In this document: piece by piece, positions 10,701 to 45,420 of the stretch | How the letters are laid out: each line of letters starts with the position of its first letter | Position numbering within the stretch: the first letter of the stretch is position 1 | Virus record (IMG/VR): IMGVR_UViG_3300005976_000001 | Span: 1 to 59,662 of that record | DNA: 59,662 bases | Origin: a virus | Lineage: Duplodnaviria; Caudoviricetes | Direction: 5' to 3' (one strand) | Translations under genes and position numbers: made by a program | The notes under the pieces: generated by a model | What the model was told of the DNA's origin: nothing | Database searches by the model: none | What the model saw: only the letters and a program-made list of their open reading frames with translations

Positions 10701-11648
10701 GGCCTGGGGTTAATTGATGAAGGGCATAACTTAACATTAGCAGATGGAACTAAGTTCTTCTTAGGGTCTGATGGTAGTGAGAATAGAGGAGTTCACAGCT
10801 TTACTAACCTAGATAGAGTTGCAAAAGGTCAAGAAAATATAAATGCAGAAGGAGGTCTCCATAGTTACGATATAGATTACACAAACGACTTAGACTTCTT
10901 TAGCGGGATGAGTGGTATCTCATTAAGTAGGCTTGTTGGTGGAGGGAAAAGCAAAGCTATTGATCAGATGGGTAACTATGTTGCTAACGGTGCATTGAGC
11001 AGTGTAGGTCACGGCCAAGAGATGACCAGAGAGAATTTTAGTAAAACAATGGAGAACAATAGAGCTTTCTATGCTCAAGCTGGAATTAGTAGTAAGTCGG
11101 AAGCTTATCAGCTAGCTAATATGATGTATGCTGAAGGACGAATTGACGATATGGACCTAATTAGTATGCACCAATCATTTAACATGATGTATGATGATGA
11201 CGGGTATGAATTAGCTCAAACACTTGCTAAAGGAAGGTTTGAGGGTGTAGAGCTAGCAGTAGGGGCTAGTGAGATGCCGGAACGTCCTGCTCCTAGAGAG
11301 GTAGAGAACAGTCCCGCAAGGCACGAGCAAGACAAGCAAAGACAGAGAGCTCCTGGATTTTTTCATCCCGGATGGTCTACTATTGGGGACCAGGTGTCGG
11401 GAGTGCCTAGACCGCCCCAGAGACCGCAAGCTGCTCCTGGTTGGGGTGATATTCTAGGAGAGCCAGCACAGCAGCCAGGGCCAACAGAATTTGCGGCACA
11501 AGCTAACGAGAACTTACAAAACTTACCGGGAATAGGAGCGAGCGCTCAACCACCGCAGCCTGGGCCAACAGAATATGCGGCACAAGCTAACGAGAACTTT
11601 CAAAACTTACCGGGGTGGAGTGCTCTTGAAAACGTAGAGATAGGTTAA
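7737..11648 (+). CDS. Large Gly/Ala-rich internal virion (DNA ejection/pilot) protein
   Basis: 1303 aa with Q/A-rich helical segments and GxxxG-rich hydrophobic stretches (GALGGASLAMGLSAVGVGLGPLGIAG); first of three giant ORFs. Confidence 0.6.
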   Translation: MAERVLYKPVSQGQLNAGGLSFMLPNSGAYSGVSLYRGDERITDLTRSPYHSSDGVKFYSHKPGGSFGDDLTARVTLEDGTVQEYAIPRGAQRYEGPMGEELAESSKGMGGGGGGGGGRFTPGQQGHGFYPAYMGGSFPDPFMVDFEGMESAPFNFTDPMEFAKEYGEFNRGEYAKNFEQSQQFALEALRTEMAGLQEFAPAAQALKHEMLSLDNVRNQDMRTAQLDQAMPGMRGALRGQTDRAQAFAEGRLPEGMSDRAFELGVRSASADRSAAGGFGERSSVARSGSDLMSVRERIGLSQYGDQLLTSNSQLRQGMELAPTQYSDAGAQIQARPEVGAARLASQTLNELNALTTTPTTAAMSTKIGQEQFGTQLEQRTREFNATNSFKAALTNQAVANQFGMAKFGYDVSFAGAVAGAHQTDYNTEMAIQQQELAQQIYQDHFDQAQDAGTAGSIASGVGAIGGILDVISDVAGTVDDIISGDEDEEVAEDVVDDGGGDGGGVETPARGPSHMPSGPETPSGPPPMAGESAPEAVDVPAGVAVPDTHTPVGTNVDGSIHAVPRSRVASEARSFNADTGANINPEGNAQTTRALMTANGITMKAAGISNRPKEGYEKVGYDRQGAAVYSNTRMRNDQNSRAGESTVDGIARVLDPFGVMSAEDKTTMQQIAAASSDTAFAARLTAMASGGAKPKDFVNTLLNKYGYKALDQLTDSPDDRAGLGAAFTAYKLFQSWDKLSNSQRGQALASMGMQGYQYATGEKLGSKVIPATDLPGIEGGGMTVNQAMGLVGSGINAYALASNWGQMNDLNRLVGGTNTVASIAQTAQQFNLLGTGSTGAAAAADAATLAANGFTSAPNLGVGAITADVGAAIPSGYTQVATEGGKVVAMPAGNAASFSGIVQGAAGVAGIVGGAMTIAESWGSGTDRGALNGALGGASLAMGLSAVGVGLGPLGIAGVVAFSALSGLMKTGKHEEQVHRDGIRDHYAGLGLIDEGHNLTLADGTKFFLGSDGSENRGVHSFTNLDRVAKGQENINAEGGLHSYDIDYTNDLDFFSGMSGISLSRLVGGGKSKAIDQMGNYVANGALSSVGHGQEMTRENFSKTMENNRAFYAQAGISSKSEAYQLANMMYAEGRIDDMDLISMHQSFNMMYDDDGYELAQTLAKGRFEGVELAVGASEMPERPAPREVENSPARHEQDKQRQRAPGFFHPGWSTIGDQVSGVPRPPQRPQAAPGWGDILGEPAQQPGPTEFAAQANENLQNLPGIGASAQPPQPGPTEYAAQANENFQNLPGWSALENVEIG
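11469..11614 (+). repeat. Two-copy intragenic repeat (84-bp period) encoding QPGPTE[FY]AAQANEN[LF]QNLPG
   Basis: gggccaacagaat at 11478 and 11562, near-identical over about 60 bp. Confidence 0.85.
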
Positions 11649-13894: not shown

Positions 13895-16800
13895 TAAAAA
13901 TGACATGGCATCTGCTCTCTATCCTATATTTGAAGATAGCAGTGTATATCAACAACCAGATCTGGTTGAGTCGTCTGTTAAAGAAATTTATTCTAGTCAC
14001 GCAGACCAGTGGGATGATGAAGCAAAGGAGCTCCTGGCTACAACTTATGACCAGTATAAAAAAGCAAGTAATATATCGGTTGGTGTTGACTGGTTGTCCG
14101 CTTTTCCGGCACCAGAAGAACTAAAAGATGAGTCTATTCCAAAAGAGACAAAGTTAGAACTAGTTGACCAGTGGCAAAAGGATGCTGAAGAGCACTTCTC
14201 TACATCAGGTGGAGCCGACTGGGTACTAAATTCATTAGAGTCCAGAAAAGCTATAAAGATGGCAGCTGACGGAATAAAGAGAAATGTTGCAGGCGAGGGA
14301 GTAAGTAGGGGGAAGGACTTAGCTGCCCGGATGGGACAAGCTGCTGGAACCTATATGGCTGATCTATTCGGTGCAGATGAAACATCTGATTCTATTAAAG
14401 AGTACTTTACTGAAAACCCAGAATATGATGACTCTTTTGGTAGTAAAGAGATAGAAGCTATCGGCCAAGCTGGTGGTCAGTTTGGATTACCTGTTGGACT
14501 AGCTGTTGGTACAGTCGGAGCGGTAACTGCTTTAGGTGGCGCAAAAGCTGCCGCAGTTGGGACAGCTGTATTTGTAGCAGCTCAGTCTATACTTGGTTTT
14601 GTCGGCGGGTATAAAGAAGCATACGACACTGTGTACGAAGCTACCGGTTCTGAAAACCAGGCAACTAATACTGCTATGCAGTCAGGATTTAGCACTGCCG
14701 GGATGGAAGTAGTAGTTAACTCTCTTGTAGCAAACAAGTTACTTTCTCCGTATGTTAAAGCTCTTAGCCCTACTAGAAAATCAAGACTTGCAGCCGCAGC
14801 TGTTGCAGCTGCTGAAAAGGGTAGTCTAGGTGCAGCTTCTGGTGGAGTCACTGAAGGGTTCCAAGACTTATCTACTCAATTACTTACTGGTGCTATCACA
14901 GAAGAGGATGTTAGCTGGTCTCAAGTAGGAGAATCTACATACTTAGGACTGATTTCAGACGGAACTATCAGTGGTGGAGGTGCCGGTGGAGCTACACTTA
15001 TAAGACATAGAAGTAGTGTAGCAGCAGATGCTGCTCAATCTGCTACTACTCTAGAGCAGGAAGCAGCTAAACCACAGCGAGAACAAACAGCAACGGAAGA
15101 AGGGCTAGAGCGCAAAAAACAACAACCTCTATCTACTGAGGCAGAGCAAGCACTAGCTACTACTTTGCAAGATTATGCAGATGGTAACTCCGATACTGAC
15201 TTAACACTAGATGGCATTAAACTAAATTCTATTCCACAGGACCTTCTAGATATACTTAACTTAGAAGCAACCTCATCTGGAGAAGGAACAGTAGTAAAGA
15301 GAGTTCCAGTAGTAAGAGGAGAATCCGGAGTGTTATCCGCTGCTTCAAAAGCTTTATCTAAAACACTTGGAACTGAAGCTGTTCAGCAAGTAGCAAGCAC
15401 AGCTGTTGACACACAAGTAGACCCAGTAACTACTCCACCTACCGACCCAGTACAGGGTACACCAGAGTTATCACAGAGACAGCTTGATACAGCTCAGAGA
15501 AATCTCACACCGGAACCAGACCTGTCTCCTGCTCCAATAGAAACTACGTTGGATGCCGAGCTTCCCGGAATGATTCAGGAAATGGAAGCAAGACTAGCTG
15601 AGATACCAACTATCAATCAGCTTCAAAATAATTTGGTACAAGCAAGAAGACGGCATGAAGCCACTAAAGAACTAGTAGCTAACTCAAAGCACATGCCTAA
15701 TCCTAAAATTAGAAAACTAATAGCAGAAGCTGCTGTTGGTCTACATAATGCAGAAACTGAGATGAACAGAGAAACAAACTCTGCTCACTACACCTACGCT
15801 AGAGAAGTTTTAAAAGACGAGATAGTTTACGCAAGGCGGCATCTTTCCCGGATGGACGAGTCAGGGAATAATAAAGTTACAAACTCTGAACACACTAGTA
15901 TTCCGTATGTGAGAGTAGCTCCATATAAAGTCTCTCAAGCAAGGTCAAAGTCAACTAAAACTGGAGCAGAGTATACCGGAATCATTGATCCAGGGTTACG
16001 AGCTACAGTTAACTCCTGGGCTGCCGGGTTTGATTTAAAGGCTTTAGGTTTTCCAAAACTATATGTTGGAACATTCTTTGATGCTCAAAACGGTGCGTTT
16101 AATAACGCCGGTAAAGATGTTCAAGCTATGATGGAGTCTGCTAAACCTAAGCTAGAGACCAGTGAAGCAGTAGCTATTGTAGGAGATAAGAAAGCTGCAA
16201 TACTTTTAAAGAGTCCTCTATTTAATCCAAAGACAGTTAAAGAAGCATCCCATGAGATGGGGCATATAGTTTTTGATACACTCTGGAATAAAAAAGCAAC
16301 AGAAGACACTAAAGCTCAAGTCTATGAGGACTATCAAAACGCAAAACTAGATGCCTTAAAGCATAAGAAAGCAGCTGACGTAGCAAAAGCTCTCGGTGTT
16401 AGAGATGATATGTATGCTAGTGATACCAGAACATTTGACCAGCTAACTCTTGATGAGCAGAAGTACTTAATAGATAATGAGATTGGCTTTAGTGAATGGT
16501 TTGCTAATAAGGTCTCAGCTTATATTGTGGACCCGACTCTTGTCCCTACTAACCCGGCACAACGTCTGTATAAAATACTAGCAGATGCGTTTAAACGGAT
16601 ATACTCTATGGTATCTGCTCAGTTTAGAGAGCAGAGTCCTACTCTAAAGCAGTGGTTAGATGAGCAGTTTAGTATTGAGAGGGCCCGTAATACCTTCCCG
16701 GAAACCCCTAAGGTAACCAGACCACTAAATAGACCTGCCGGACAGCGAGAGATGTCAGTATCTAAAAGGTTACGCCTGGCAGATAACACACGGAGAGTAA

Positions 16801-19235
16801 AGGAAGGACTAAAGCATAATTACTACACACCGCTTTCACCTAAAGCTACTCTAAGAGATGTCCAAAACAGAGTAGCAGAAGACAGAATTGATTTTAATAT
16901 CAACGAAGTATTAGATGAAAAGAACGGTATGCCAGCTGATATCCGTTCTCCATACGCAGTAGCAGTGCATGATACTTTGCAAAAAATGGTAGCCAAAGAG
17001 ACCAACCCGGATAAGAAAGCTTTCTTAGAGGATAAGTATATATCGTTTGTTAACAACGTAGCTGAAATTGCGTTAAAGTACGGGAGATTTAATCAAGCAC
17101 TGAGTCTGCTCCCTAGAATGAGTAAGAGTTCGCTTTTTCGTTCTACTAAGAATCAAGTAGAGAAAGCTTTTGAGAGAGCTAAAAAAGAACTTCCAGCTAA
17201 CTACGATAAAATAATTAAAGAGGTAGTAGATGATATCCAGCCTAAGATGAAGGGCAAAGACTTGCACCTTCTACAAGAAGTAAACAGACAGCTCTTAAAC
17301 AGGCTAGACGCAGAGTTAGATATCCCCACAGAAGGAGCTCTTAGGTACTTCTGGTACGGTAACTTTCTTTCCGGGTTTGATACTCAGATGGTAAATGTTG
17401 GTGCTAGTGGGATGGACCTGTTAGGCCGAACTATGGCCAGTATGATTGCTAGCCCTAGAGACATTCCGACTATTATATCTGGAACTCTTGCGGGGTTTAA
17501 CAAAGCAATAACTACCGGTGAAGCTAACTTAAGAGGTATAGCTACTAGAAATGCAAGGTCAAATAAATATGGAATTGATAATGCAGCTGTAGCTCCACTA
17601 GTTAAGTGGGAAAACAGAGCACTAAGAGCTCCTATGAACGCAATGATAAAGCTCTTAGAGAAGTTTCCTTTTAGAGCACTTAGAGCTCAAGATGCTTTTA
17701 TGTCTACTATAGCGTCAGAGCAGCAAGCTTATTTGATAACCGCTAGAGCATTAAGAAAGCATATAAAAGATAACGACTTAGAAGTAACAAGAGAGCAGTT
17801 TGCTCAGACTATGACTGATATGCTTTTTGATGGGCCAGAGACTATAGCTAAGCTACGAGAGCAAGCTATTGCTGAAGCAAAAGAGGTTTACGGTGATAGA
17901 GACATCTCTGATAACGCATTGGAAAACTCTGTAACTTTAAGAGTATTTGAACTAGTAGACCAGATGAGGGACCCGGAGCTAGTAAAAGAGGCTTCCAGAT
18001 ATGGCGACATGATAACATACACTCAAAAGCCGCAAGGAACTTTTGGTGTAATAGCTGAGTTGATGAACAAAGCTAACAGAGACCTTATAATCACACGGTA
18101 TACAGTGCTTCCGTTCGTAGATGTAGTTGCAAATGTTCTCTCTAGGAGTGTGGATTATAGCCCGATAGGTGGGTTACGTGCCTGGTACGGCGGTCATTTA
18201 AGCTCTGTATACGGTAGAGATAAGACTACTTTTTCTAATCTAGAAAGAAGGCAAAGAGCAGCTGCTTCTTTTATGGGAACAGCTTCTTGGGGACTATTAA
18301 TGACAGCAGCCTCTCAAGCGCTTCAAGCTTCTGAAGAAAGCGGCGAACCACCGTGGTTTGAGTGGAACGGGTATGGGCCTAAAGCAGGAAGTAGAGCTAG
18401 AGACCAGTGGCTCTCTGCCGGAAACAAGCCTTGGTCACTACGGATAGGTGATACAATTTTATCCTATAACGAGATGCCAGGTGCTCCTTTTATGGCACTT
18501 GGTGGAGCGATCATGGACCATATGCGGTACAACCAGGAATGGGATGAGATGGATCTGGCAGCTAGAGTATTACTACTTAGTAAAGATACATCTGCAAGTA
18601 TTACTAACATGGGGTTCTTAAGCTCAATAAAGAACATAGGCGATATCATGGCAGGTAAGCGTGATATACTTTCCCCACTATCTACATCAGTTCAGGGACT
18701 TGTTCCAGGCCAGGGTGCTCTACGTTATATTAACAATATAATGGACCCAACTAAGGTAGACTACCGGGATGTAAAAGCGCTATTTATGGCTAACTTACCA
18801 TATGCTAAAAGCTTTGTACGTCCTGAACTAAATGTCTTCGGAGAGAAGCTTCACAGACCTGGAAGATTTACAAGTTCACTTGTACCAGATCCAACTATAA
18901 AGTGGATGACTGATAGAAACTTAACTGTGGCTGGTTACGGTGGAACAGAAGTTGGAACAGGAAGGAGTTTAGATGAAAAATCTTTCTATGCAGCTATTAA
19001 AGCTGATAGAGAAAAACACCTCGGAAGGTATGCCGCCAATATACTTACAGAAGAGGAGAAGTTTGCTATTCAAGAAACATCCGGTCCGAGAATTAAAAAA
19101 CGCATCCAAGCACTTATGGATAAAGGTTGGGCACCGGAGAGCTATCAATACGTAATTGATAAGATAGTTACTCAAGAAAGAAACAGAGCAAAACAAGAGA
19201 TACTGGCCGGTCAGTACAGAGCAAGAAACAACTAG
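13866..19235 (+). CDS. Giant internal virion/ejection protein of polyvalent type with zincin-like metallopeptidase motif
   Basis: 1789 aa; HEMGH at 16251-16265 with downstream SEWFAN; helical C-terminal region resembling large polyvalent/ejection proteins. Confidence 0.6.
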   Translation: MSTDDELTLNKNDMASALYPIFEDSSVYQQPDLVESSVKEIYSSHADQWDDEAKELLATTYDQYKKASNISVGVDWLSAFPAPEELKDESIPKETKLELVDQWQKDAEEHFSTSGGADWVLNSLESRKAIKMAADGIKRNVAGEGVSRGKDLAARMGQAAGTYMADLFGADETSDSIKEYFTENPEYDDSFGSKEIEAIGQAGGQFGLPVGLAVGTVGAVTALGGAKAAAVGTAVFVAAQSILGFVGGYKEAYDTVYEATGSENQATNTAMQSGFSTAGMEVVVNSLVANKLLSPYVKALSPTRKSRLAAAAVAAAEKGSLGAASGGVTEGFQDLSTQLLTGAITEEDVSWSQVGESTYLGLISDGTISGGGAGGATLIRHRSSVAADAAQSATTLEQEAAKPQREQTATEEGLERKKQQPLSTEAEQALATTLQDYADGNSDTDLTLDGIKLNSIPQDLLDILNLEATSSGEGTVVKRVPVVRGESGVLSAASKALSKTLGTEAVQQVASTAVDTQVDPVTTPPTDPVQGTPELSQRQLDTAQRNLTPEPDLSPAPIETTLDAELPGMIQEMEARLAEIPTINQLQNNLVQARRRHEATKELVANSKHMPNPKIRKLIAEAAVGLHNAETEMNRETNSAHYTYAREVLKDEIVYARRHLSRMDESGNNKVTNSEHTSIPYVRVAPYKVSQARSKSTKTGAEYTGIIDPGLRATVNSWAAGFDLKALGFPKLYVGTFFDAQNGAFNNAGKDVQAMMESAKPKLETSEAVAIVGDKKAAILLKSPLFNPKTVKEASHEMGHIVFDTLWNKKATEDTKAQVYEDYQNAKLDALKHKKAADVAKALGVRDDMYASDTRTFDQLTLDEQKYLIDNEIGFSEWFANKVSAYIVDPTLVPTNPAQRLYKILADAFKRIYSMVSAQFREQSPTLKQWLDEQFSIERARNTFPETPKVTRPLNRPAGQREMSVSKRLRLADNTRRVKEGLKHNYYTPLSPKATLRDVQNRVAEDRIDFNINEVLDEKNGMPADIRSPYAVAVHDTLQKMVAKETNPDKKAFLEDKYISFVNNVAEIALKYGRFNQALSLLPRMSKSSLFRSTKNQVEKAFERAKKELPANYDKIIKEVVDDIQPKMKGKDLHLLQEVNRQLLNRLDAELDIPTEGALRYFWYGNFLSGFDTQMVNVGASGMDLLGRTMASMIASPRDIPTIISGTLAGFNKAITTGEANLRGIATRNARSNKYGIDNAAVAPLVKWENRALRAPMNAMIKLLEKFPFRALRAQDAFMSTIASEQQAYLITARALRKHIKDNDLEVTREQFAQTMTDMLFDGPETIAKLREQAIAEAKEVYGDRDISDNALENSVTLRVFELVDQMRDPELVKEASRYGDMITYTQKPQGTFGVIAELMNKANRDLIITRYTVLPFVDVVANVLSRSVDYSPIGGLRAWYGGHLSSVYGRDKTTFSNLERRQRAAASFMGTASWGLLMTAASQALQASEESGEPPWFEWNGYGPKAGSRARDQWLSAGNKPWSLRIGDTILSYNEMPGAPFMALGGAIMDHMRYNQEWDEMDLAARVLLLSKDTSASITNMGFLSSIKNIGDIMAGKRDILSPLSTSVQGLVPGQGALRYINNIMDPTKVDYRDVKALFMANLPYAKSFVRPELNVFGEKLHRPGRFTSSLVPDPTIKWMTDRNLTVAGYGGTEVGTGRSLDEKSFYAAIKADREKHLGRYAANILTEEEKFAIQETSGPRIKKRIQALMDKGWAPESYQYVIDKIVTQERNRAKQEILAGQYRARNN

Positions 19236-24626: not shown

Positions 24627-25520
24627 TCACCATCCCCATGCTAGATTTAAGCTACCGAAACTATGAGAACTTCCCTGCTCCCACTCTTTTGTAGCTCTGT
24701 TCCAGATATAAACAAGACGGTATCCTTTGTACTCTAAGAAGGCTCCAAGATGTAACTCAGTGATAGCTCTCTCGGAACCAGGTTGCGGGTACTGATGATT
24801 ACTCCTAAAAAAGCTTCCATCAAATAATACATTATGCCCTACTATCTTATATGTAGTGCCTGTAAACAGAAAGAATCTAAAAGGACTACCCGGAGAGTCC
24901 ACTTGAATTGATTGCGGTGTGAATGTTTTTGGTAAGTTTACTCCTATCCGGTATAGTACTCTCCCACTTACCTGCATGATATCTGTTCCAATGTCTGCTC
25001 TAGCAGATGTAATTACATCCCCATTATAGTTACCAATACTAACCGGAACAGATAAGAATTGCCTCTCTGCTAGCCCTGCAATCACCGGCTCGTCTTTAAG
25101 TTGAGTTCCCCACCCTCTTGGGTCAGTGCCTAAGCCTATATCATTATGAACAAACTTTTGAACATCTTCTCCTTTAGCACATGGTCCGATGCACCCTACT
25201 CTAATACCCCACTGGTCTATTTTATTGTCTTTAGTATAGTACTTTTGGTACGTACCAGTGAGAGATGCTGCGTACCCTCTATCTCCTGGTTCCGGCTCGT
25301 CTGTTCTTAAGTTATCCGGAGTATACATCTTATGAGCTATAGCGTAACTCTCAGATACTGATTCTGTTATATCCTTACCGGCCCGAACAATGAGGCCTTG
25401 AGTATAATTAGCGTCTTTATTCTTATCTACTTTAAAGAAGTCATTTTCTTCGTAGATGTCATACCTGTACCCGGAACAAGCAGCCAGACTACACAGTAAT
25501 ACTATTAAAAAAGTCTTCAT
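24627..25520 (-). CDS. lpxR: LpxR-family lipid A 3'-O-deacylase (outer-membrane beta-barrel, DUF2219)
   Basis: Family motifs in order: END..., D..YTQG, MYTP, DR.YA, G.IGP.A.GE.VQ..VH, P.GW..Q, N..FDG, E...H.FGS; C-terminal aromatic residue; N-terminal signal peptide. Confidence 0.8.
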   Translation of the reverse strand: MKTFLIVLLCSLAACSGYRYDIYEENDFFKVDKNKDANYTQGLIVRAGKDITESVSESYAIAHKMYTPDNLRTDEPEPGDRGYAASLTGTYQKYYTKDNKIDQWGIRVGCIGPCAKGEDVQKFVHNDIGLGTDPRGWGTQLKDEPVIAGLAERQFLSVPVSIGNYNGDVITSARADIGTDIMQVSGRVLYRIGVNLPKTFTPQSIQVDSPGSPFRFFLFTGTTYKIVGHNVLFDGSFFRSNHQYPQPGSERAITELHLGAFLEYKGYRLVYIWNRATKEWEQGSSHSFGSLNLAWGW

Positions 25521-26253
25521 GCCCTTTTACCCATGTCTCCCATGTAGGTACATTCGACAAGTCAAAGAGAACCTGTCTCAAATCACGAACGTCACCTTTC
25601 TTGTATTTTACTACAGGATACTCCCAACACCACCCCACATCTGGTGCTATTACAGGAACACCCATTGAAAGGGCTTCCACAACCGGGACAGGTCCTCCCT
25701 CACATGTCGATGTAACAACTAAATAATCAATTTTATTATAAAAGTTCTCTAGCTCGGATTGCTTTTGAGAGTGTATTTCACACGGCCAGCCCTTCCCCCA
25801 CGCCAAGAACTTATATTCTCCCATTAACTGCTCTACAAAAGCTTCTCCTTTTCGTCCTGATTGAGTATGTACTTTACCGCATACCCCGAACACTAAATCT
25901 TTTTTAAATCTGCTTCCAGGCTTAATAACATGAGCGTTTTTCTTTCTCTTAAACAAATCTTTCTGAGTAGTTGAGTTCATACAAATATGATAGTCACAGT
26001 ACTCTACTACTTCTATAAATTTTCTCTTCTTTTTCTTACAAAAATCACTACTCCCTGTTTCCAAGTGTGTAAAGAATCCTACTTTTATTTTAGCTTTAGA
26101 GGATTTAGCACAGGTGTACGGTAAGAAGTATTCAATGTCGCAGTCCGGGTTGTCTATGTTCACGTTAGAGAAAGCCTTTGTAAGCTCTAAAGCGCACCGC
26201 TTCATGATCCAGTTATGTGATTCTGTCTTAAGAGATATTTTTAGATGATCCAT
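25489..26253 (-). CDS. GT-B fold glycosyltransferase (GT4-like)
   Basis: RKG, FY..ID, S..EGGPVPVVEALSMGVPVI..DVG (E-X7-E motif). Confidence 0.85.
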   Translation of the reverse strand: MDHLKISLKTESHNWIMKRCALELTKAFSNVNIDNPDCDIEYFLPYTCAKSSKAKIKVGFFTHLETGSSDFCKKKKRKFIEVVEYCDYHICMNSTTQKDLFKRKKNAHVIKPGSRFKKDLVFGVCGKVHTQSGRKGEAFVEQLMGEYKFLAWGKGWPCEIHSQKQSELENFYNKIDYLVVTSTCEGGPVPVVEALSMGVPVIAPDVGWCWEYPVVKYKKGDVRDLRQVLFDLSNVPTWETWVKGHEDFFNSITV

Positions 26254-38900: not shown

Positions 38901-39334
38901 TGTTTGGTGAACATAATAGCGGCAGCAGCAACCAACGCAGACTGAAGCAGCTGTTTGAGTACGAGTTTAAATATCTGTACCGAGGTGAAATGTCTATTAG
39001 TTACCAGAGAGTTAGAGGGATTAAGGGGAGTGAGAACGCGGAAGGTAGAGAGAGGGTGTGGGGTAACGTATGGATAAACTTTACTAAGCTATACAGTCAG
39101 TTTAAAGAGCTGGAAGGTTTAAGGATGGCTGACGGAACACTTAACTTGGAAGTGGCTGATGACTTAATGGATGACGCAATAGAGTGGATGGGGGAGTTTG
39201 AAGAAGCAGCCTGTACGTGCCTAGGGGTAGAGTGGAATGGGAAATCAAAAGAATTTGTAGATAAGTGCAGAAAGCGGTACCTGAGCAGCACAGATAATAA
39301 CATTAGTCAATATTCTGACATGCTAAAACGATAA
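35909..39334 (+). CDS. Primase-helicase: RepB-like AEP primase, PriCT-like domain and D5/SF3 helicase
   Basis: VVDLDF, VESRPGRFHIYW, D..LRVPGF; GRNQALY; FGPGGSGKGS (Walker A), IDE (Walker B), QSN (motif C). Confidence 0.85.
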   Translation: MSAKEFVRFNLDDTRTYINYISHQPYKLKQNRTIFTFMLVLERLIGSGPESTPDSYILQREMVPAHHTLHVKYKDIYKFLKVLYLKLRAKQNGEIGGSRIVAPGSVVSEKDFKITNSIYSVHNTLNLCTLGAGRRKEHMISPRVLVVDLDFGTTKENALYLAAQENASLVVESRPGRFHIYWQISENVSLDSWSKFQLALAHKLGGDTNLRNITSMLRVPGFQRFLPDGSVYTPNIIFKEKSPDVYSLDDMYSVWPDVDELYQSGLDELRAVYDEQKKAAQQVFAEIQKSGASGVKADGIPGLPTSSSFTSTVHKYGRNQALYSILKLTGYKAYRDTYQFKKPDDFIRLLAAQAQLINEKFQESLEEREVLEIVSKLSVKVPKMYQAEVEQEKQAVDEAAKLLVRRDVEDTKIGKDVTTTLPMAPVAVTVTSVSSNQPGEIQPGEKQASQPRVEPSDPDIPDNLLDLAVQFAEYIYNKHNEQLSKIFKVAFKSKNYIPLCDLIFRYYHLLGKIKASGASVSLAGQSKWGESIYEVRSLNRDEFSGLVSRIAFKWASLFLSDKRTKIIDKMPKSSEFKAIADISHTVLVTLPVVKRQHPMFIVYQNGVLNVALREFTPDKLAALKHSNPIHARFIPEVLNVAREHRDVPASELVRILCPVTYRYMNDWFPGDPATIDLLLRFIGYSMTTNTTKQKFLFFFGPGGSGKGSIVQMIEAILGQSNCAGVEYKGLDSPYKVSEFVDKLLISIDEVEGTKKEHERRLSLVKQITGGGMMQIERKYAHPYNDHITGKLVLQSNELLEYQDKGGSITGRMIPVGFEQRFRGSSVAEQLEKEPITGMIEARSEFRLSKSTKSKQSQLVEGVERPEDAKDAGYSLIIEHELNILATLAGLSWMKSLRQNAGLTLPLMGSDEFAKVGKLSAEARQARLKAKPQSAALGVGVNKMKGTLNPIEYALLAFTEYSRGMTCRNKDLVALCYLVGILGNDDWSGTTNRAKLDNLFGEHNSGSSNQRRLKQLFEYEFKYLYRGEMSISYQRVRGIKGSENAEGRERVWGNVWINFTKLYSQFKELEGLRMADGTLNLEVADDLMDDAIEWMGEFEEAACTCLGVEWNGKSKEFVDKCRKRYLSSTDNNISQYSDMLKR

Positions 39335-39419
39335 AAGTTAGAGGAAGAGTAGACCTGCCGGGAGAGTGGGGAAGGTAAAAACACCCGACTAGTTCAAGTT
39401 ACTTAAATCTAGAGTTTAT

Positions 39420-39584
39420 AGAACTAAACTAGAACTAGCCTATGTGGGCCAGTATGTGGGCCAGTAAAAAAATCTATTTGATATCATTACATAAGTTTGG
39501 GTACCATATCCGAATGTATGTGGGCCATATGTGGGCCATATGTGGGCCATATGTGGGCCAGCAAATATTAGAACTAAACTAGAA
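39420..39584 (+). repeat. Iteron-like array, candidate replication origin
   Basis: TATGTGGGCCA at 39441, 39453, 39517, 39528, 39539 and 39550, flanked by AGAACTAAACTAGAA at 39420 and 39570; related copies near 39664, 39815 and 39883; A/T-rich tract 39900-40050. Confidence 0.75.
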
Positions 39585-40143
39585 GTAAAAACTAAAATGT
39601 AGTTTAGTTATAGTTACTTACCCTACTTTTGACCATTTTGTTTGTGGTATTTAAGCCACAACCTGGCCCAGATGTTAACAACTAACAGGTTTAGTCGGTG
39701 TTGGTTGGAATCTACAGTATCAAACGTAATAAAAGGAAACTAAAGTTCACTGGCCAACTTCTAGTTTAATTCTAGTACCTATATAATCAACTAGTTATAA
39801 CCCCCCCGGGACACATATGGCCCAGATATAATTGGAGAGAAAAACTAGTTAAATTCTAATATAGTCAATACTTTAAGTCAGGGTGGGCCAGATGGACCAC
39901 ATAAATCAGTAAACTTTTATAATATCTGTACGATAAGTTATAATTATAACAAAATTAAAAAAAAGAGAGAAAAATAGATAAAGAGAAAAAGAGAGAAAAT
40001 TTTTAAAAAGTTTTTGGAAAAATTTTTAGAGTTTTAAATCTAAAAATATCTTACAAGCTGTTTGAAAATCGGCCTAAAATGAAGGTAGAGATTTAGGGTT
40101 AAATTCTTACTTTTCGGTGACGGGCGGCGGCGGCGAGAGAATT

Positions 40144-40341
40144 TTAGAAAGATGTTATAAAGTAGAGAGCCAGGAAGAAGAATAGAGGGGTGAGGAGAGA
40201 TGAGAGGATGAAGGCTATTTTATGGCGGTGTGAGTAGTAGAGGATTGTTAGCTTTGAGGGTTGCTGGATGGCTTGAGCGTAGAGATTTGGGTTTATAGGC
40301 TCTCTGAGGTAGGGAATTTGTTTTTTGTCTATCTGGTGCAT
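40144..40341 (-). CDS. Possible small membrane protein
   Basis: C-terminal hydrophobic helix; lies beyond the early terminator and could be spurious in this purine-biased region. Confidence 0.3.
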   Translation of the reverse strand: MHQIDKKQIPYLREPINPNLYAQAIQQPSKLTILYYSHRHKIAFILSSLLTPLFFFLALYFITSF

Positions 40342-40435
40342 TGTGGGCCTTATAACCTTAAAGGGTGTATTTGATTATACGGCACGATATCCGGGGGACT
40401 TTAGGTTTGCAGATTAAATTAGGAAAAAAGAGTAT

Positions 40436-40478
40436 AAAAAAAGGCTCCAGGCATATCTAGATAGATATACCCGGAGCC
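40436..40478 (-). terminator. Rho-independent terminator ending the early operon
   Basis: Minus strand GGCTCCGGGTATATCT-loop-AGATATGCCTGGAGCC followed by T7. Confidence 0.85.
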
Positions 40479-40523
40479 CCAAACAACGAACAAAAGACAG
40501 ATATAGGTTAGTATATCATAAAT

Positions 40524-41153
40524 TTAAAGGCTGGTACTATAACCATTAGCATCAAAATAGTTTAAAATGTTTGCTACGTTATCGTTCTCCCAGAAAAGAT
40601 CACGGATATGGTCGTGTAAATCCTCTACCAGGTAATATTCATCCATCTGGGATATTTCGGTTAACCCCTCTTCTGTCATCCAGTAGTATTCAAGTAAGGT
40701 TCCTACTTGATTATGGTCCCACCTACTTATTGGGGTAGTCATCCAGGCTGATAGTGAATTAGGGTATCTAGAGATAAACCCACTATATGAGGTAAATTTC
40801 TCTGCTATAAGTTTATCGAGACCAGACAAATCAACAGCTAGTAGCATTCTGCTAACTGATTGAGCCGGAATAGAGCAGAAGACTCTATCGGTTTCAAAGT
40901 TGTATTCACGGGGTGAAACTACTTCACTAAATTCTAGCTCTAATTCTAGTAATGCTTCTAAAGATTCTACGTATAACCGTGCATACTCGGTATGGATTTT
41001 CTTCCAGTCAACTAAGTTGTGTACTTGTTCTAGTAGCTCTGGATTTATTTCTCCGGAGTCATCAGAGCATTCTAGTTCTAGTCTACTTTCTATCTCTGAG
41101 CTATGGATTGAATCATAGAATCCGCTAAATGGAATGGTTGTTTGTTGTTTCAT
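40524..41153 (-). CDS. Acidic early hypothetical protein
   Basis: IPFSGFYDS, SPREYNFETDR; AAGGA RBS just downstream of a repeat element. Confidence 0.7.
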   Translation of the reverse strand: MKQQTTIPFSGFYDSIHSSEIESRLELECSDDSGEINPELLEQVHNLVDWKKIHTEYARLYVESLEALLELELEFSEVVSPREYNFETDRVFCSIPAQSVSRMLLAVDLSGLDKLIAEKFTSYSGFISRYPNSLSAWMTTPISRWDHNQVGTLLEYYWMTEEGLTEISQMDEYYLVEDLHDHIRDLFWENDNVANILNYFDANGYSTSL

Positions 41154-41178
41154 AGTTTTCCTTATTGATGTTTGTTGC

Positions 41179-41228
41179 TTGGATTAAAATAATCCTCAAT
41201 CCGGGCTTGCAACCCGGATCAAGCATTA
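41179..41228 (-). repeat. Early-operon intergenic hairpin element copy A
   Basis: Minus strand TAATGCTTGATCCGGGTTGCAAGCCCGGATTGAGGATTATTTTAATCCAA; the first TAA is the stop of the upstream gene. Confidence 0.9.
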
Positions 41229-41666
41229 TTTTAGTTGGCCGCGTTCGTTATATAACCACTCGTTGGCCTCTGATACTTCTAAAAAGTATTCTGCTGAACA
41301 AATATATTCGTATTCTCGTTCTAGTGAGATTCTAATTGTTTCGTTACAGTCGTTTAATACCTCGTTTAATGCATCAAACACTGTGATCATGAGTTTGGAG
41401 ACTCTCGGTGATTGTTTAGAGTCGTAGTATAAGATGGAAGTAACTTCTAATCCTGGGCATCTATGCCTATAAGATTCTATGCTAAAAATCTTTATCGGAT
41501 CAGGTTCATCAGCTAACATTTTAGCAACCCGGCAAAGACTTCTAATGTGCTCAAAGTCATTAAATCCTGATGACAAGTAATCGTGATGTTCTTGCTCGAA
41601 TGCATTTCCAGGCAACTCTTGAAGTTCTTTAGCAGAGTAGAGACTGATTGTTTTTGTTTGGACCAT
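41226..41666 (-). CDS. Acidic early hypothetical protein
   Basis: YS..EL...EREYEY..S.EYF.E..EANEW.Y...G; GAGG RBS. Confidence 0.7.
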   Translation of the reverse strand: MVQTKTISLYSAKELQELPGNAFEQEHHDYLSSGFNDFEHIRSLCRVAKMLADEPDPIKIFSIESYRHRCPGLEVTSILYYDSKQSPRVSKLMITVFDALNEVLNDCNETIRISLEREYEYICSAEYFLEVSEANEWLYNERGQLK

Positions 41667-41714
41667 AGTTCTACCTCTTAGTTTGTTGTTTGTTTTAGTT
41701 AACTAGTGCATTAA

Positions 41715-41876
41715 TTATTTAAAGTAAGGAAGGGTTAAGTTTGTTGTTTTCATTTTCTCGGTGTCATAGTTATATGCCGCTATTGTGAAGGCTATCACTC
41801 CAACAGAGATAATTGAGATTAAAACAAAGAGCGCAATGGGTAGCACCGGTTTTAGTTTTTTATTTAATTTGTTCAT
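41715..41876 (-). CDS. Small single-TM early protein
   Basis: Start ATG 41876 (MNKLNKK) after AAGGA; hydrophobic segment VLPIALFVLISIISVGVIAFTIAAY. Confidence 0.6.
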   Translation of the reverse strand: MNKLNKKLKPVLPIALFVLISIISVGVIAFTIAAYNYDTEKMKTTNLTLPYFK

Positions 41877-41900
41877 TTTGTGGTTTTCCTTGTTGTTTGT

Positions 41901-41950
41901 TTGGACTAAAATAATCCTAAATCCGGGCTTGCAACCCGGATCAAGCATTA
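41901..41950 (-). repeat. Early-operon intergenic hairpin element copy B
   Basis: Minus strand TAATGCTTGATCCGGGTTGCAAGCCCGGATTTAGGATTATTTTAGTCCAA, just after the ardA stop; two differences from copy A. Confidence 0.9.
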
Positions 41951-41952
41951 TT

Positions 41953-42429
41953 TTAATGGGAAAAAATATAGACCTGATTTTCATGCTCGATTACCTCGTA
42001 ATCGTGTTCTAGGTCCCTAGCGAATGCTTTATAGTCAAAGTACGGTTGTATACTTTCCGGAAGCTCAAAACATTCATCGGCAATCTCTGCTGCATACTCC
42101 TCGAACGAATTACAAGTAGTTATGTATCTATCTAAGATGTCTTGAATTTCACCGTCTTCTGATGACCAGTAAGCCAGTACAGCTTCTTGCTCGTAGTCTT
42201 CAAGCTCTAGGACTTCCCAGATTTTTGCATCAATATAGGACTCTGAATAGAGAGTGTCTGGGATGTCTTCTTTATCCTGAAACATCAACTCCGGATCATC
42301 TTCATCTTTATGCAATTCTCTGCAAGCTTCCAGGAACTCATCTTTATTCGAGTAGTTTTCTAGGTCTAGCCAATCTCCAAATAGTGATCCCTCGTTGTAT
42401 TTTTTATATGTGCCTATGTATAACTTCAT
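41953..42429 (-). CDS. ardA: ArdA antirestriction protein (type I RM DNA mimic)
   Basis: IGTYKKYNEGSLFGDWLDL, E.MFQD.E.IP, PYFDYKAFARDL; very acidic. Confidence 0.9.
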   Translation of the reverse strand: MKLYIGTYKKYNEGSLFGDWLDLENYSNKDEFLEACRELHKDEDDPELMFQDKEDIPDTLYSESYIDAKIWEVLELEDYEQEAVLAYWSSEDGEIQDILDRYITTCNSFEEYAAEIADECFELPESIQPYFDYKAFARDLEHDYEVIEHENQVYIFSH

Positions 42430-42454
42430 GGTTTTTCCTCGTTGTTTAGTTTGA

Positions 42455-42673
42455 TTAGTTTTTTCTAACGATAAAGTGGCTGCTGTTTGGTCGCTCGCTT
42501 GGTTTGTACGAATGACAGTTAGCAGTTGTAGATTTTAATTCTACTTCTGAAACATGGACTATACTTGACTCAATCTCTTTTATTATTTTTTCGGCAAATT
42601 CTATCGCTCGGTCGATTGAGAAACATATAGTTCTATATGTCTTCTTGTTATGCTGTACGCTAATTAAATACAT
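42455..42673 (-). CDS. Small early hypothetical protein
   Basis: 72 aa; AGAGG RBS downstream of a repeat element. Confidence 0.6.
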   Translation of the reverse strand: MYLISVQHNKKTYRTICFSIDRAIEFAEKIIKEIESSIVHVSEVELKSTTANCHSYKPSERPNSSHFIVRKN

Positions 42674-42695
42674 ATTTACCTCTTTTGTTGTTTGT

Positions 42696-42757
42696 TTGGA
42701 TTAAAATAATCCTCAATCCAGGTAGGTTTGCTACTTTGCTACCCGGATCAAGCATCA
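42696..42757 (-). repeat. Early-operon intergenic hairpin element copy C (longer stem and loop)
   Basis: Minus strand TGATGCTTGATCCGGGTAGCAAAGTAGCAAACCTACCTGGATTGAGGATTATTTTAATCCAA; the first TGA is the upstream stop. Confidence 0.9.
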
Positions 42758-42994
42758 TTCTACCTCTTCTACCCATTCATCCGGTATATCAATCAGAAGT
42801 GGGCATCCTGTTTTAGATTCTCTTTCCGGAATCTCCAGGCAGAGTGTATCGGTATCGGCTCTATCTTTGCTGTTGAATTCTGAAGCTAAGATGTCAGCTA
42901 GCTTGTCTAAGTTTACGTACTCTGAAGGTGTGTTTACGTTGTTTAAATACTCTGTTGCTAGCTCTTTTTTGTCTTGTTTTGTTAGTACTTTCAT
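42755..42994 (-). CDS. Small acidic early hypothetical protein
   Basis: 79 aa, EIP..ESKTG.P; AGGAG RBS within the 81-bp repeat. Confidence 0.65.
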   Translation of the reverse strand: MKVLTKQDKKELATEYLNNVNTPSEYVNLDKLADILASEFNSKDRADTDTLCLEIPERESKTGCPLLIDIPDEWVEEVE

Positions 42995-42996
42995 TG

Positions 42997-43077
42997 TGTT
43001 TGCTCCTGTTTTTCGTCATTAGATCAAAGTGATCCTCAATTCACTCAGTTAAGAGAGGATCAAGCATTACTTTATCC
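42997..43077 (-). repeat. 81-bp direct repeat copy 1 containing hairpin element copy D and RBS
   Basis: Identical to 43590-43670. Confidence 0.92.
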
Positions 43078-43303
43078 AATATTTATTCACTGCTTGGCGT
43101 TTGATCTCTGAGAGTATTTGCTGAGTTTGATTTTCAACATCATAGTGATCTGCGAGTTGGAGTGCTTTGCACTTGATTTGATTGCGACTAAAGTTATCAA
43201 TTGCTCTGTCAAGTAAAGAGTCTAGACCGATTAAGTCAAAATATTGCTTGTTCAATTTCGCTTGTAAGGTCATTTCGTTCTCCGTGTTGTTCTCCCTGGC
43301 CAT
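43067..43303 (-). CDS. Small early hypothetical protein
   Basis: 78 aa; its stop TAA begins the hairpin element. Confidence 0.55.
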   Translation of the reverse strand: MARENNTENEMTLQAKLNKQYFDLIGLDSLLDRAIDNFSRNQIKCKALQLADHYDVENQTQQILSEIKRQAVNKYWIK

Positions 43304-43338
43304 ATCTCAAGCCGGGTTTCTTGCTATAGACCTCAGTA

Positions 43339-43590
43339 TTACTCTTTTTCAATCCAGTTTTCGCTATCTACATCATAAACGACTTCGATCAAGTCCTGCT
43401 GTGACTCCCAGCTAGAAGCTACATCTATGGCTCCCGTATTCTGATTCATGTAAACAGTGTCGGCAGACACTAAAAGATTAGCGGGATCTGATACGAATTC
43501 TAGAGCTTCTTCTTTTGAGTTGACGCCAAAAATTGGAAAAAGTTTGTCCGCTATTTTTTCATAATATCCGTTTTGTTGTGTTTCCATCAT
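43339..43590 (-). CDS. Small acidic early hypothetical protein
   Basis: 83 aa, YMNQNTGAID...W...LIEV.....W; AGGAG RBS in the repeat. Confidence 0.65.
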   Translation of the reverse strand: MMETQQNGYYEKIADKLFPIFGVNSKEEALEFVSDPANLLVSADTVYMNQNTGAIDVASSWESQQDLIEVVYDVDSENWIEKE

Positions 43591-43670
43591 GTTTGCTCCT
43601 GTTTTTCGTCATTAGATCAAAGTGATCCTCAATTCACTCAGTTAAGAGAGGATCAAGCATTACTTTATCC
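43590..43670 (-). repeat. 81-bp direct repeat copy 2 containing hairpin element copy E and RBS
   Basis: Identical to 42997-43077. Confidence 0.92.
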
Positions 43671-43856
43671 GATCAACCATTTTTGATTCTCGTAGTCGTA
43701 AAACACGTTGTTAGGAGCTGGTATGTTCATCTCTTGCACGATACTAGCAAGTGCAATCCTTTCTTCTTGCGTCATTCTTTTGAGAAATGCGTTTAGTTCG
43801 TTTTGAGCAGAGGGACCTTTGTTCAGTATTTCGAGTGCTTTATCTATATTGTTCAT
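43665..43856 (-). CDS. First gene of the early operon, hypothetical protein
   Basis: Start ATG 43856 (MNNIDK) after CAGGAGCAAACACA, the same RBS context as in the 81-bp repeat. Confidence 0.6.
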   Translation of the reverse strand: MNNIDKALEILNKGPSAQNELNAFLKRMTQEERIALASIVQEMNIPAPNNVFYDYENQKWLIG

Positions 43857-43918
43857 TGTGTTTGCTCCTGTTGTTGTTGTTACTTTGCTACTTGGATCAA
43901 GCAAGTTCTCTATCTTTG

Positions 43919-43947
43919 ATTATGTTTGAATATTCGTATCGTGTCAA
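43919..43947 (-). promoter_or_regulatory. Strong sigma70 early promoter
   Basis: Minus strand TTGACA-N17-CATAAT with an A/T-rich upstream element. Confidence 0.75.
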
Positions 43948-44401
43948 ATAAAACTTTAGACTTTTTCATGATAAAAGATCAGAAAACGCTATTGATCTGA
44001 TTTTTCTATATTTTTTCTTTCAATTTGTTTGACTACTTCGGTTTGCCTCTCTCAATCTACTAAACAAACCCCAATTCCTAGATCGCTAGAATTCTGATTC
44101 TCGTGATCTAGATTTGAAATGCTCTTAGATTGCTGCTCAGGATGAGCTCTAAAAAAATTTGAGGCTATCCAATTTAATTATCGTAACATAGTACATCTTG
44201 ACTAGTGTTCAGTGATATCAAGTACTTAGATGATTGATTGATTATTCTAGAATGAGTGGTCAGATTAGAGATAACTAACCGGAATTATTAGAAAAAAGGA
44301 ATCCATTAAATCGAGGAGACAGGCCGGAAAAAATCGAAGATGCCCCCCGGTATTCGCCTCCATATGTACATACGTTCTAGATTTTCTCGTCAAACACGTA
44401 G

Positions 44402-44582
44402 TCATCTTATTTGTTTGATTACCCCGGCTAGCCTGGTAGTCTCTCCGGTTAGCCGGGCCGGGCAGTAGTCTCTCCGGTTAGCCGGGCCGGGCAGTAGTCT
44501 CTCCGGTTAGCCGGGCCGAGTAGTAGCCAAGTAGTCTCTACGGCTAGCCGGGTAGTAGGCTAGTAATCATCTTATTTGTTTG
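44402..44582. repeat. 29-bp GC-rich tandem repeat (about 3 copies plus a degenerate one) flanked by TCATCTTATTTGTTTG direct repeats
   Basis: GTAGTCTCTCCGGTTAGCCGGGCCGGGCA at 44436 and 44465, near-complete copy at 44494, degenerate copy at 44531; flanks at 44402 and 44567. Confidence 0.85.
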
Positions 44583-44620
44583 GTTGCTCCGGGTCGAAAA
44601 GTAGGCTACTATCCCCAGAC

Positions 44621-44700
44621 GGCAGTGTGGATGCTTATAGGGTAGTAAGTTACCCGAACTTTATTAACATAAAGCTAAGCGGCCAAGCAGCCATACTGCC
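44621..44700 (+). ncRNA. Candidate structured RNA (three-way junction)
   Basis: GGCAGTGTGG/CCATACTGCC plus TGCTT/AAGCA close two hairpins, GGGTAG-TAAG-TTACCC and CTTTAT-TAAC-ATAAAG. Confidence 0.4.
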
Positions 44701-44702
44701 CC

Positions 44703-44732
44703 TTGAGCTAATACACCTTCCCGAAGTATAAT
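44703..44732 (+). promoter_or_regulatory. Sigma70-like promoter, likely leaderless, for 44739
   Basis: TTGAGC-N18-TATAAT, then AAACCT and ATG; no SD. Confidence 0.55.
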
Positions 44733-44738
44733 AAACCT

Positions 44739-45134
44739 ATGTCAATAGAGAGAGGATTCGATGAGCTAGATGAAGAGCTAGATACTGATGAGGACACCGA
44801 GCCACGCGAAGAGGATGACGGTGACTTAGCCGTGTCTATTATGGATAAGGCATCCGGTACTCTACGTAATGTCTCTCCACCTAAAGTAACACTAAAGTAT
44901 GTTGACGGTACGAGCACAGAAGTAGAAGTAGTTGATGCGGATGCTCAGACTTCGTTTCTAGTTCTACACATGCTACACCAGGCATGGTCTCAGGTAGGAA
45001 CTATAAAAGGAGTGTGCGACCTGGCCGGGTCAACCATGAAGACACTAGAGACAAGAAGAAAGTTATTAAATAAACAGTATGGTGCGATACCTTCCGAATC
45101 AGGAAACAGCAAAAAAGTATTCTCTCTCGATTGA
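44739..45134 (+). CDS. Hypothetical protein, terminase small subunit candidate
   Basis: 131 aa with a helical C-terminus, next to TerL and the repeat region; assigned by position only. Confidence 0.35.
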   Translation: MSIERGFDELDEELDTDEDTEPREEDDGDLAVSIMDKASGTLRNVSPPKVTLKYVDGTSTEVEVVDADAQTSFLVLHMLHQAWSQVGTIKGVCDLAGSTMKTLETRRKLLNKQYGAIPSESGNSKKVFSLD

Positions 45135-45420
45135 GTATGCTTTAAAGAACACTCCTGGATTTAGACCTCTACCACTTGAAGAGTTCATATCTACAGAATC
45201 TATTTCTCTGGCATGCTTTTACTCAGAAGAGGAAGTCTTTGATTGGATAGCAGATGATGATAAGTGCTTTGGACTGCTACTCCAGAATGGAATGTGCCTT
45301 GTCCACCCGGATGGCTTAATTGAAAAGATAAGAGATAAGTTCATGAGAACTATAAAACTGGATATGGAAGCAGTAAAGAAGCATATCACTCCGGCCCGAA
45401 TAACCGTTTCATCCCTTTAA
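45079..45420 (+). CDS. Hypothetical protein
   Basis: ORF between 44739 and the TerL 3' end; convergent overlap with TerL; exact start uncertain. Confidence 0.5.
   Translation: MVRYLPNQETAKKYSLSIEYALKNTPGFRPLPLEEFISTESISLACFYSEEEVFDWIADDDKCFGLLLQNGMCLVHPDGLIEKIRDKFMRTIKLDMEAVKKHITPARITVSSL

Follow-up and report, generated by a model that had tools for sequence, protein, structure and literature searches.

What do near-identical repeats between the small early genes of a phage do? The question is raised by the virus record IMGVR_UViG_3300005976_000001, a complete genome of 59,662 bp with direct terminal repeats, which we analysed over its whole length and refer to as the window. Five copies of a short element lie between genes of a single minus-strand operon, which consists of a sigma70-like promoter, nine open reading frames (ORFs), among them that of the anti-restriction protein ArdA, and an intrinsic terminator. 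The original prediction was that the repeats delimit a modular array of small anti-defence genes in which cargo can be gained, lost or reordered. We favour a different reading, to which we assign a probability of about 0.5: the repeats may be intercistronic RNA modules that process, stabilise and insulate the cistrons of an early operon which the host polymerase transcribes, in the manner of the early-region RNase III sites of T7. The feature is real, and it is best filed with the known intercistronic hairpin modules of phage early regions (T7 RNase III sites, PeSL and ESAS).

We prefer an RNA-level module because the hairpin formed by the element is strand-specific, because it stands in a fixed register between stop and start codons, because it is found in one host-transcribed operon, and because it recurs in other phages by design and not by sequence. 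On the polycistronic mRNA, the hairpin would be a candidate site for a double-strand-specific endonuclease (of the RNase III type, from the host) and/or would hold back 3′ exonucleases, leaving every upstream cistron with a protective stem at its end. With the last part of the upstream coding sequence also shut inside the hairpin, the standard leader would stay single-stranded, and any downstream ORF could be translated independently of its neighbour. Profiles for RNase III, Resolvase and Y1_Tnp (PF01797) matched nothing in the 59.7-kb genome; since the phage has no RNase III of its own, the host enzyme would be needed for any RNase III cleavage.

A stop–hairpin–leader module between early cistrons

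Two motifs bear out the reported copies. The 5′ motif ATGCTTGATCC occurs exactly five times, always on the minus strand, with starts at 41226, 41948, 42755, 43067 and 43660. Two further sites have one mismatch: 43904, which belongs to the half-copy that had been reported just after the promoter, and 51780, which is unrelated. The total of seven matches compares with 0.89 expected, and none of 100 shuffles reached seven. The 3′ consensus ATTKAGGATYAYTTTRRTCYAA matches five times without mismatch, at low coordinates 41179, 41901, 42696, 43019 and 43612, as the original prediction had placed the five intergenic copies; 0.06 matches were expected, and the motif has no further occurrence in the genome. 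A covariance model built from the five copies matched, in the whole window, only those five and weaker reverse-strand echoes. All five copies share one orientation and are confined to the early operon. The features of this operon are as follows, in the direction of transcription.

43919–43947, minus strand: sigma70-like early promoter (TTGACA, 17 nt, CATAAT; agreement at 11 of 12 positions), ranking first among the promoter-like sites of 39300–45400
43877–43904, minus strand: 5′ half-copy in the 5′ untranslated region of g1, with 5′ arm TTGCTTGATCC, a copy-C-like loop and a copy-B-like leader, without 3′ arm
43665–43856, minus strand: g1, 63 amino acids (aa), no assigned function (ORF list)
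43608–43670, minus strand: element copy A, hairpin 43618–43667; covariance model 74.8 bits
43339–43590, minus strand: g2, 83 aa, acidic, no assigned function (ORF list)
43067–43273, minus strand: g3, 68 aa (78 aa from an earlier ATG), no assigned function (ORF list)
43015–43077, minus strand: element copy B, hairpin 43025–43074
42755–42994, minus strand: g4, 79 aa, acidic, no assigned function (ORF list)
42694–42765, minus strand: element copy C, hairpin 42702–42762 with a 13-nt loop; covariance model 85.8 bits
42455–42673, minus strand: g5, 72 aa, no assigned function (ORF list)
41953–42429, minus strand: g6, the ArdA anti-restriction protein, 158 aa (PF07275, phrog_2059)
41897–41958, minus strand: element copy D, hairpin 41907–41955; covariance model 79.6 bits
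41715–41876, minus strand: g7, 53 aa, hydrophobic, no assigned function (ORF list)
41226–41666, minus strand: g8, 146 aa, no assigned function; resembles viral hypothetical proteins
41175–41236, minus strand: element copy E, hairpin 41185–41233; covariance model 83 bits
40524–41153, minus strand: g9, 209 aa, acidic (phrog_37559, function not assigned in PHROG)
40441–40480, minus strand: strong intrinsic terminator ending the operon, an 18-bp stem followed by an uninterrupted T run

The element is a near-palindrome of 49–61 nt with 21-nt inverted arms. According to the predicted folds, a full copy forms one long imperfect hairpin of ∼22 bp, made up of a 9-bp AU-rich lower stem, a conserved G·G mismatch, an upper stem of 12–14 bp and a tip that differs between copy types. 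In this respect the original prediction needs correcting: the predicted structure is one long hairpin, not merely a short hairpin at the 3′ side. Copies E, D and C form 21–22 pairs with one mismatch, and A and B form 18. The folding energies of E, D and C were −29, −28.2 and −30.4 kcal/mol, with z-scores of −4.64, −4.75 and −4.86, respectively, and none of 200 shuffles folded as well. Over the 21 shared pairs, 96% of the cells are paired, as compared to 29–56% when the partner is slid. The half-copy does not fold (−4 kcal/mol, z +0.79). In three of the five copies, E, D and C, the sense strand folds 6–14 kcal/mol better than the antisense strand (−26.7 versus −17.8, −23.8 versus −17.4 and −25.4 versus −11.5 kcal/mol). 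This advantage, which is accounted for by 2–5 G·U pairs, favours a role for the element as RNA.

The hairpin is held in a fixed position with respect to the flanking genes. In copies E, C and B, the upstream stop codon directly precedes TGCTTGATCC and occupies hairpin positions 6–8, in agreement with the claim that the element begins with the stop codon in three copies. In D and A, the stop codon is 5 nt further upstream, at hairpin positions 1–3, and still within the element. The stop codon thus lies inside the AU-rich lower stem in all five copies, whose 5′ arms offer stops in two frames. The hairpin is followed by an A/C-rich leader of 27–31 nt that carries a Shine-Dalgarno sequence, is unpaired in the predicted folds and leads to the ATG. 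At the five junctions, the entire intergenic space is a copy of this module. A promoter scan of 39300–45400 found no promoter-like site on the coding strand inside any copy, and an Rfam scan of the same interval at E ≤ 1 returned no family.

The element has a conserved AUG, which in copies E, C and B shares bases with the stop codon upstream (UAAUG or UGAUG); in public collections, such starts have been used by gene callers for g1 and g7. A relay upstream ORF beginning at this codon was considered and dropped: the frames run for 8, 8, 31, 77 (in frame with g7) and 33 codons and are not conserved.

The operon reads, in order, half-copy, g1, A, g2, g3, B, g4, C, g5, ArdA, D, g7, g8, E and g9. 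The element is therefore present at five of the eight internal gene junctions. The g2/g3 and g5/ArdA junctions have no copy, the g7/g8 junction has the A/C-rich leader and lacks the hairpin, and g9, the last gene, is followed by the terminator without a copy. The proposal that each gene carries its own boundary of stop, hairpin and ribosome-binding site thus describes a repeated module of the ArdA operon correctly, and overstates its reach.

The identification of ArdA, which had been made from the sequence, was borne out by PF07275 (E 3.3e-25; 89.9 bits against a cut-off of 27), with residues 4–149 aligned to profile positions 2–149 of 155, and by phrog_2059 (E 5.5e-27). Pfam and PHROG searches gave no function for the other cargo. 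Among these proteins, g1 matched no Pfam or PHROG family (best Pfam YL1, E 0.0035, 17.9 bits against a cut-off of 29.2), g9 matched only the PHROG family without function, and the protein atlas gave nothing on the function of g8 or g9. The cargo proteins are mutually unrelated, as had been stated (lowest pairwise BLASTP E-value 0.055). ArdA is the sole demonstrable anti-defence gene among the nine to ten genes of the operon, so the description of the cargo as anti-defence genes holds for this one gene.

The design in related phages and the case for an RNA role

To look for the module in relatives, we used the large terminase (phrog_2, E 6.6e-13). Terminase homologues of 45–58% identity are plentiful. 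An IMG/VR scan with the terminase alone confirmed no relative, and relatives were reached by terminase alignment, which yielded 47 related loci. No homologue of g1–g10 was found in 79 loci searched, including these 47, and the flanking protein p131 was found in 19 of the same 79. The spot is therefore hypervariable in content, with conserved flanks.

Sixteen of the loci extend at least 3 kb downstream of the terminase, and three of these have a repeated module of their own: L042 (three copies), L048 (four) and L068 (three). L044 and L065 are the same contig range, and L039–L041 gave the same hairpins at four shared sites, of which L040 lacks one. The modules of L042, L048 and L068 follow or overlap a stop codon. 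They comprise one or two hairpins, in which the base is conserved and the tip differs through compensatory changes, and then a conserved A/C-rich leader and a ribosome-binding site. A further locus, L052, repeats the leader only. No sequence is shared between the module families, and IMG/VR has the L048 core in its own contig only. Such modules of like design, unrelated sequence and wholly different cargo fit a hyperplastic region. In L068, the modules lie at 3992–4070, 4940–5005 and 6196–6262, and their 5′ arm, AAUAUUGCUUGA, resembles the AAUAAUGCUUGA of the window in the same layout. Common descent of the two is possible; the covariance model does not score L068.

The design was also encountered beyond these relatives. 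Homologues of ArdA and g9 are carried by 55 and 56 other viral contigs in IMG/VR, respectively. By a crude criterion, 32 of these 111 loci have at least three same-strand repeat positions, many of them being near-duplicates of one lineage. In L170, an unrelated viral contig of ∼106 kb, at least seven genes between 2900 and 7520, including an ArdA homologue, have variable GC-rich hairpins and then a conserved leader (TGTCTAACTTAAA ... GGAATTATG) in front of them. As modules of like layout and unrelated sequence are found in the relatives and in L170, the design is recurrent and its sequences are private to each genome. In L089 and L093, two of the 56 loci with a g9 homologue, an ArdA homologue lies no more than 4 kb from this gene, which hints faintly at a similar type of neighbourhood for g9 and ArdA.

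The element itself was sought in IMG/VR, GenBank phages, JGI metagenomes and GTDB genomes, collections that may omit records of this genome or of very near ones, and in 151 loci that are related or contain cargo homologues. GenBank phages gave no match by blastn of the region or tblastn of the terminase. The strict element pattern had no occurrence in JGI metagenome contigs or in GTDB genomes (185,579 species), and a 34-nt stretch of the promoter had none in IMG/VR. The covariance model found nothing in 40 of the 47 terminase-related loci and nothing in the 111 cargo-homologue loci. Two sets of IMG/VR matches were rejected as chance: a two-part pattern matched once in each of 32 loci, none of which scored with the covariance model or had a cargo homologue, and the 3′ motif matched once, in L198, without a 5′ arm (15.9 bits, E 0.59). 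The original prediction had named absence of the element outside this genome as evidence against an exchangeable array. By that standard, its presence in no other record searched leaves the claim of mobility unsupported by the data at hand.

The same searches bear on whether the element is a selfish miniature palindrome, of REP or MITE type, that spread within the operon and affects expression incidentally. Its near-palindromic form, with long inverted arms and near-identical copies, and the private family of each related phage are what such an element would show. The genome, however, encodes no Y1 (RAYT-type) transposase, integrase or resolvase, and the strict pattern is missing from both the species collection and the metagenome contigs. 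Moreover, random insertion would not yield one orientation, one operon, a fixed stop–start register and a spacer of 27–31 nt. We consider this the least probable of the explanations discussed here.

Several of the results weigh against an RNA module. The folds of copies A and B are weak (−19.2 kcal/mol, z −2.56, and −16.9 kcal/mol, z −0.76, respectively). Covariation among the copies, which amount to four distinct sequences, is not significant: the single compensatory pair was matched by 239 of 500 shuffles. A small 3′ hairpin, mutually exclusive with the long one, is equally compatible with the alignment. Among the relatives, the L042 module consists of two hairpins of 6–7 bp, too short for a classical RNase III substrate, and the sense strand is not favoured in L048 and L042. 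Within the operon, three junctions work without the hairpin. Finally, the upper stem of copy E with its AUUAUUUUA tail was flagged as terminator-like, which makes attenuation a live alternative.

Leaky termination is the main mechanistic rival because the upper stem and tail of copy E have the form of a terminator. According to this explanation, the hairpins are attenuators that grade expression along the operon, and 3′ ends arise by termination and not by cleavage. The upper stem of copy E (13 pairs, six of them G–C) followed by GAUUAUUUUA fits the pattern used in the scan, and the lower stem is shaped like the A-tract/U-tract pair found around bidirectional terminators. Consistent with this, copy 1 of L068 is a GC stem followed by UUUU, and the stem-loops of PeSLs terminated transcription in a reporter assay, according to PMC2839356. 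By contrast, copy E was the only one of the five to satisfy the scan, and the U tracts are interrupted, and poor in A and B. The operon's own terminator, with its uninterrupted T run, shows what form a full terminator takes here, and the L042 and L048 modules have no U tract after the last hairpin. Five successive terminators would also starve ArdA and the distal genes unless very leaky. Overall, we regard attenuation as quite unlikely.

Signs of copying between sites, and the surrounding genome

If the module acts on RNA, what accounts for the near-identity of its copies? Over 81 of 81 nt, copy A (43590–43670) matches copy B (42997–43077) exactly. This identity runs from the last codons of g1 and g3, which are in different frames, to a few bases before the next start codon. 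Since the same bases are read in different frames by the two genes, the shared unit is the whole intergenic module and not a coding similarity. A and B flank g2–g3 as direct repeats, 593 nt apart. Copies D and E share 90% identity across 70 nt. The half-copy is a mosaic, with 89% identity to copy C across 27 nt (the loop) and 96% to the leader of copy B across 24 nt, and copy C is likewise mosaic. Read from the sequence, the identical pair and the mosaics are traces left by duplication or gene conversion. The module fills the space between stop and start codon almost exactly, so that a crossover or a conversion event involving two copies would leave the ORFs intact. A secondary expectation is that the copies are homogenised within the genome and could offer patches of homology at which genes are gained and lost, as in the PeSLs of T4-type phages.

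These traces also speak for the view that the elements are primarily boundaries of a mobile gene-cassette array, with anti-defence cargo gained, lost and reordered by copy–copy recombination without a dedicated recombinase. The A/B direct repeats around g2–g3, the half-copy after the promoter and the mosaic copy C would be expected of such an array, as would stops supplied in two frames and identical bases read in different frames by g1 and g3. The hypervariable content of the spot (homologues of g1–g10 in none of 79 loci, p131 in 19) and the scattering of ArdA and g9 homologues over other viral contigs point the same way, and PeSL-mediated shuffling with mini-circles, described in PMC2839356, provides a precedent.

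Against this view, the element was in no other record searched, three junctions lack it, and ArdA is the sole identified anti-defence gene. Furthermore, the available assemblies of the phage share one gene set: in the protein collection, the cargo proteins with an unambiguous start (g4, g5, ArdA, g8 and g9) all have records on the same nine contigs, the flanking p131 likewise has nine, and variants of g1, g2 and g7 differ merely by the start call or one residue. No joint between element copies, whether deletion or circle, was seen in four runs, a weak test as it used contigs, which drop rare variants. The notion of a modular plug-in array retains the signs of recent copying in A and B; no exchange event was seen, and no breakpoint was mapped. 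We regard a cassette array as unlikely. A broader form, in which each phage of the ∼60-kb family keeps a private hairpin-plus-leader module as a recombinase-free, promoterless platform, foreign ORFs inserted between two copies are terminated, insulated and translated at once, and recombination between copies homogenises them (concerted evolution) and turns over anti-defence cargo, is equally doubtful. Recombination between copies, to which the mosaics and the identical pair point, has probably helped to make the region plastic, in the way of PeSLs.

The contigs of the four runs, which are labelled hypersaline lake metagenome, break at repeats, and the 81-mer shared by A and B has double depth. 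In run X3, the contig with the promoter and g1 (43641–44465), which ends at element A and at a 29-nt tandem array, has ∼3× the depth of its neighbours (340 versus 97–122), and a shorter piece of this segment is likewise deeper in run X4 (16 versus 2.5–6). The segment may be shared with other genotypes, contig depth being a weak measure. The 29-nt array, at 44436–44563 between the early promoter and the terminase-side genes, consists of three tandem units and a fourth, 73% alike, at an offset of 37 nt. Its copy number varies between runs, one unit being absent in X1 and X2. On the other side of the operon, non-coding DNA at 39400–39860, between the primase-like gene and the operon end, contains an 11-nt tandem repeat (TATGTGGGCCA) and several inverted repeats, an arrangement that looks iteron- or origin-like.

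Elsewhere, the genome encodes a family A DNA polymerase, an SNF2 helicase, a primase-like protein, a DUF2800/PD-(D/E)XK nuclease, and tail-fibre and transglycosylase proteins. A homologue of LpxR, an outer-membrane lipid A deacylase (PF09982, E 3.6e-53), and an adjoining protein that matches glycosyltransferase group 1 are encoded at 24627–25520 and 25489–26253, both on the minus strand. This pair suggests that the phage remodels lipopolysaccharide and that its host is Gram-negative. Two giant proteins, of 1303 aa (7737–11648, plus strand) and 1789 aa (13866–19235, plus strand), are encoded on either side of the SLT-transglycosylase protein. These virion-region proteins had no Pfam, PHROG or PDB sequence match and may be ejected internal virion proteins.

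The presence of two large proteins without a recognisable family is relevant to a further explanation, in which the conserved parts of the element are binding sites for a sequence-specific protein, be it a translational or transcriptional regulator or an unrecognised phage RNA polymerase for which they are promoters. The invariant stem base and G·G mismatch, next to a variable tip, are consistent with such sites. So is a sequence that is homogeneous within a genome and different between related genomes, as expected for co-evolution with a genome-specific factor. However, the 3′ motif occurs nowhere else in the genome, which would limit such control to the early operon, and no candidate regulator was identified. 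A search for a T7-type RNA polymerase matched nothing here, yet it matched nothing in any control genome either. We consider a protein-binding role very unlikely.

Comparison with known intercistronic modules

The favoured reading, that of an RNA expression module, derives from phage T7. The early RNase III sites of T7 (R0.3, R0.5, R1, R1.1 and R1.3) are imperfect hairpins between early cistrons transcribed by the host polymerase, in a region that begins with an anti-restriction gene. The elements described here are likewise imperfect hairpins of ∼50–60 nt, related to each other and located between cistrons of an early operon that carries an anti-restriction gene, with a short leader before the next start codon. 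In predicted structure, they have the ∼two-helical-turn imperfect hairpin of a T7-type site between cistrons of a polycistronic mRNA. They differ from the T7 sites in having the stop codon inside the stem and a single G·G mismatch in place of the larger internal loop. No sequence relation to the T7 sites was seen, and Rfam gave no match. PMC6993053 describes R1.1 and R0.5 as RNase III sites of T7 and states that a stabilising 3′ structure remains after a single cut.

PeSLs (promoter-early stem-loops), according to PMC2839356, combine strong sigma70 promoters with stem-loop terminators, and they are proposed there and in PMC4122927 to bring about a shuffling of modules in phages of the T4 type. 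The present element resembles them in having the upstream stop codon in an AT-rich stretch, a stem-loop, a Shine-Dalgarno sequence and a start codon, within a hyperplastic region of ORFans. Unlike in a PeSL, nothing promoter-like is present on the coding strand of any copy, the only strong site being the operon promoter at 43947–43919. Whereas recombination products of PeSLs have been shown, as mini-circles and as insertions or deletions between close relatives, none were seen in the contigs of the four runs.

Among elements of unknown function, the closest in structure is the ESAS/SAS pair (extended start-associated and start-associated sequences) of Cluster K mycobacteriophages. According to PMC3203893, the ESAS is a conserved leader at gene starts, with imperfect inverted repeats and a spacer of variable sequence or length ahead of it; it stands before a subset of genes in one orientation, its consensus varies by subcluster, and its function is not known. 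The present element differs in sequence and in host phylum, and it is confined to one operon, where it overlaps the upstream stop codon, whereas the ESAS is genome-wide.

The operon also recalls an integron attC array, with a promoter, a partial site and then ORFs split by imperfect palindromes of conserved base and variable tip. The original prediction had noted the absence of an integrase and of an attC core, and both points were upheld. PF00589 (Phage_integrase) had no match in the complete record and matched 14 of 14 control genomes, and neither GTTRRRY nor RYYYAAC is present in the five aligned copies, the sole GTT in any copy preceding GCAA. In addition, the last gene has no site, and three of the eight junctions have no copy. 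An integron-like cassette reading is unsupported so far.

If the favoured reading is correct, the stop/hairpin/leader arrangement would be a natural insulator that frees the expression of small early genes from their neighbours, and a useful part for operon design. It would also be a guide to early operons rich in anti-defence genes among phages that have not been cultured. Should recombination at the modules be real as well, it would explain how early regions turn over fast without breaking gene expression. The like design in three relatives and around the ArdA homologue of L170 suggests that this is a widespread and under-described organisation of phage early regions.

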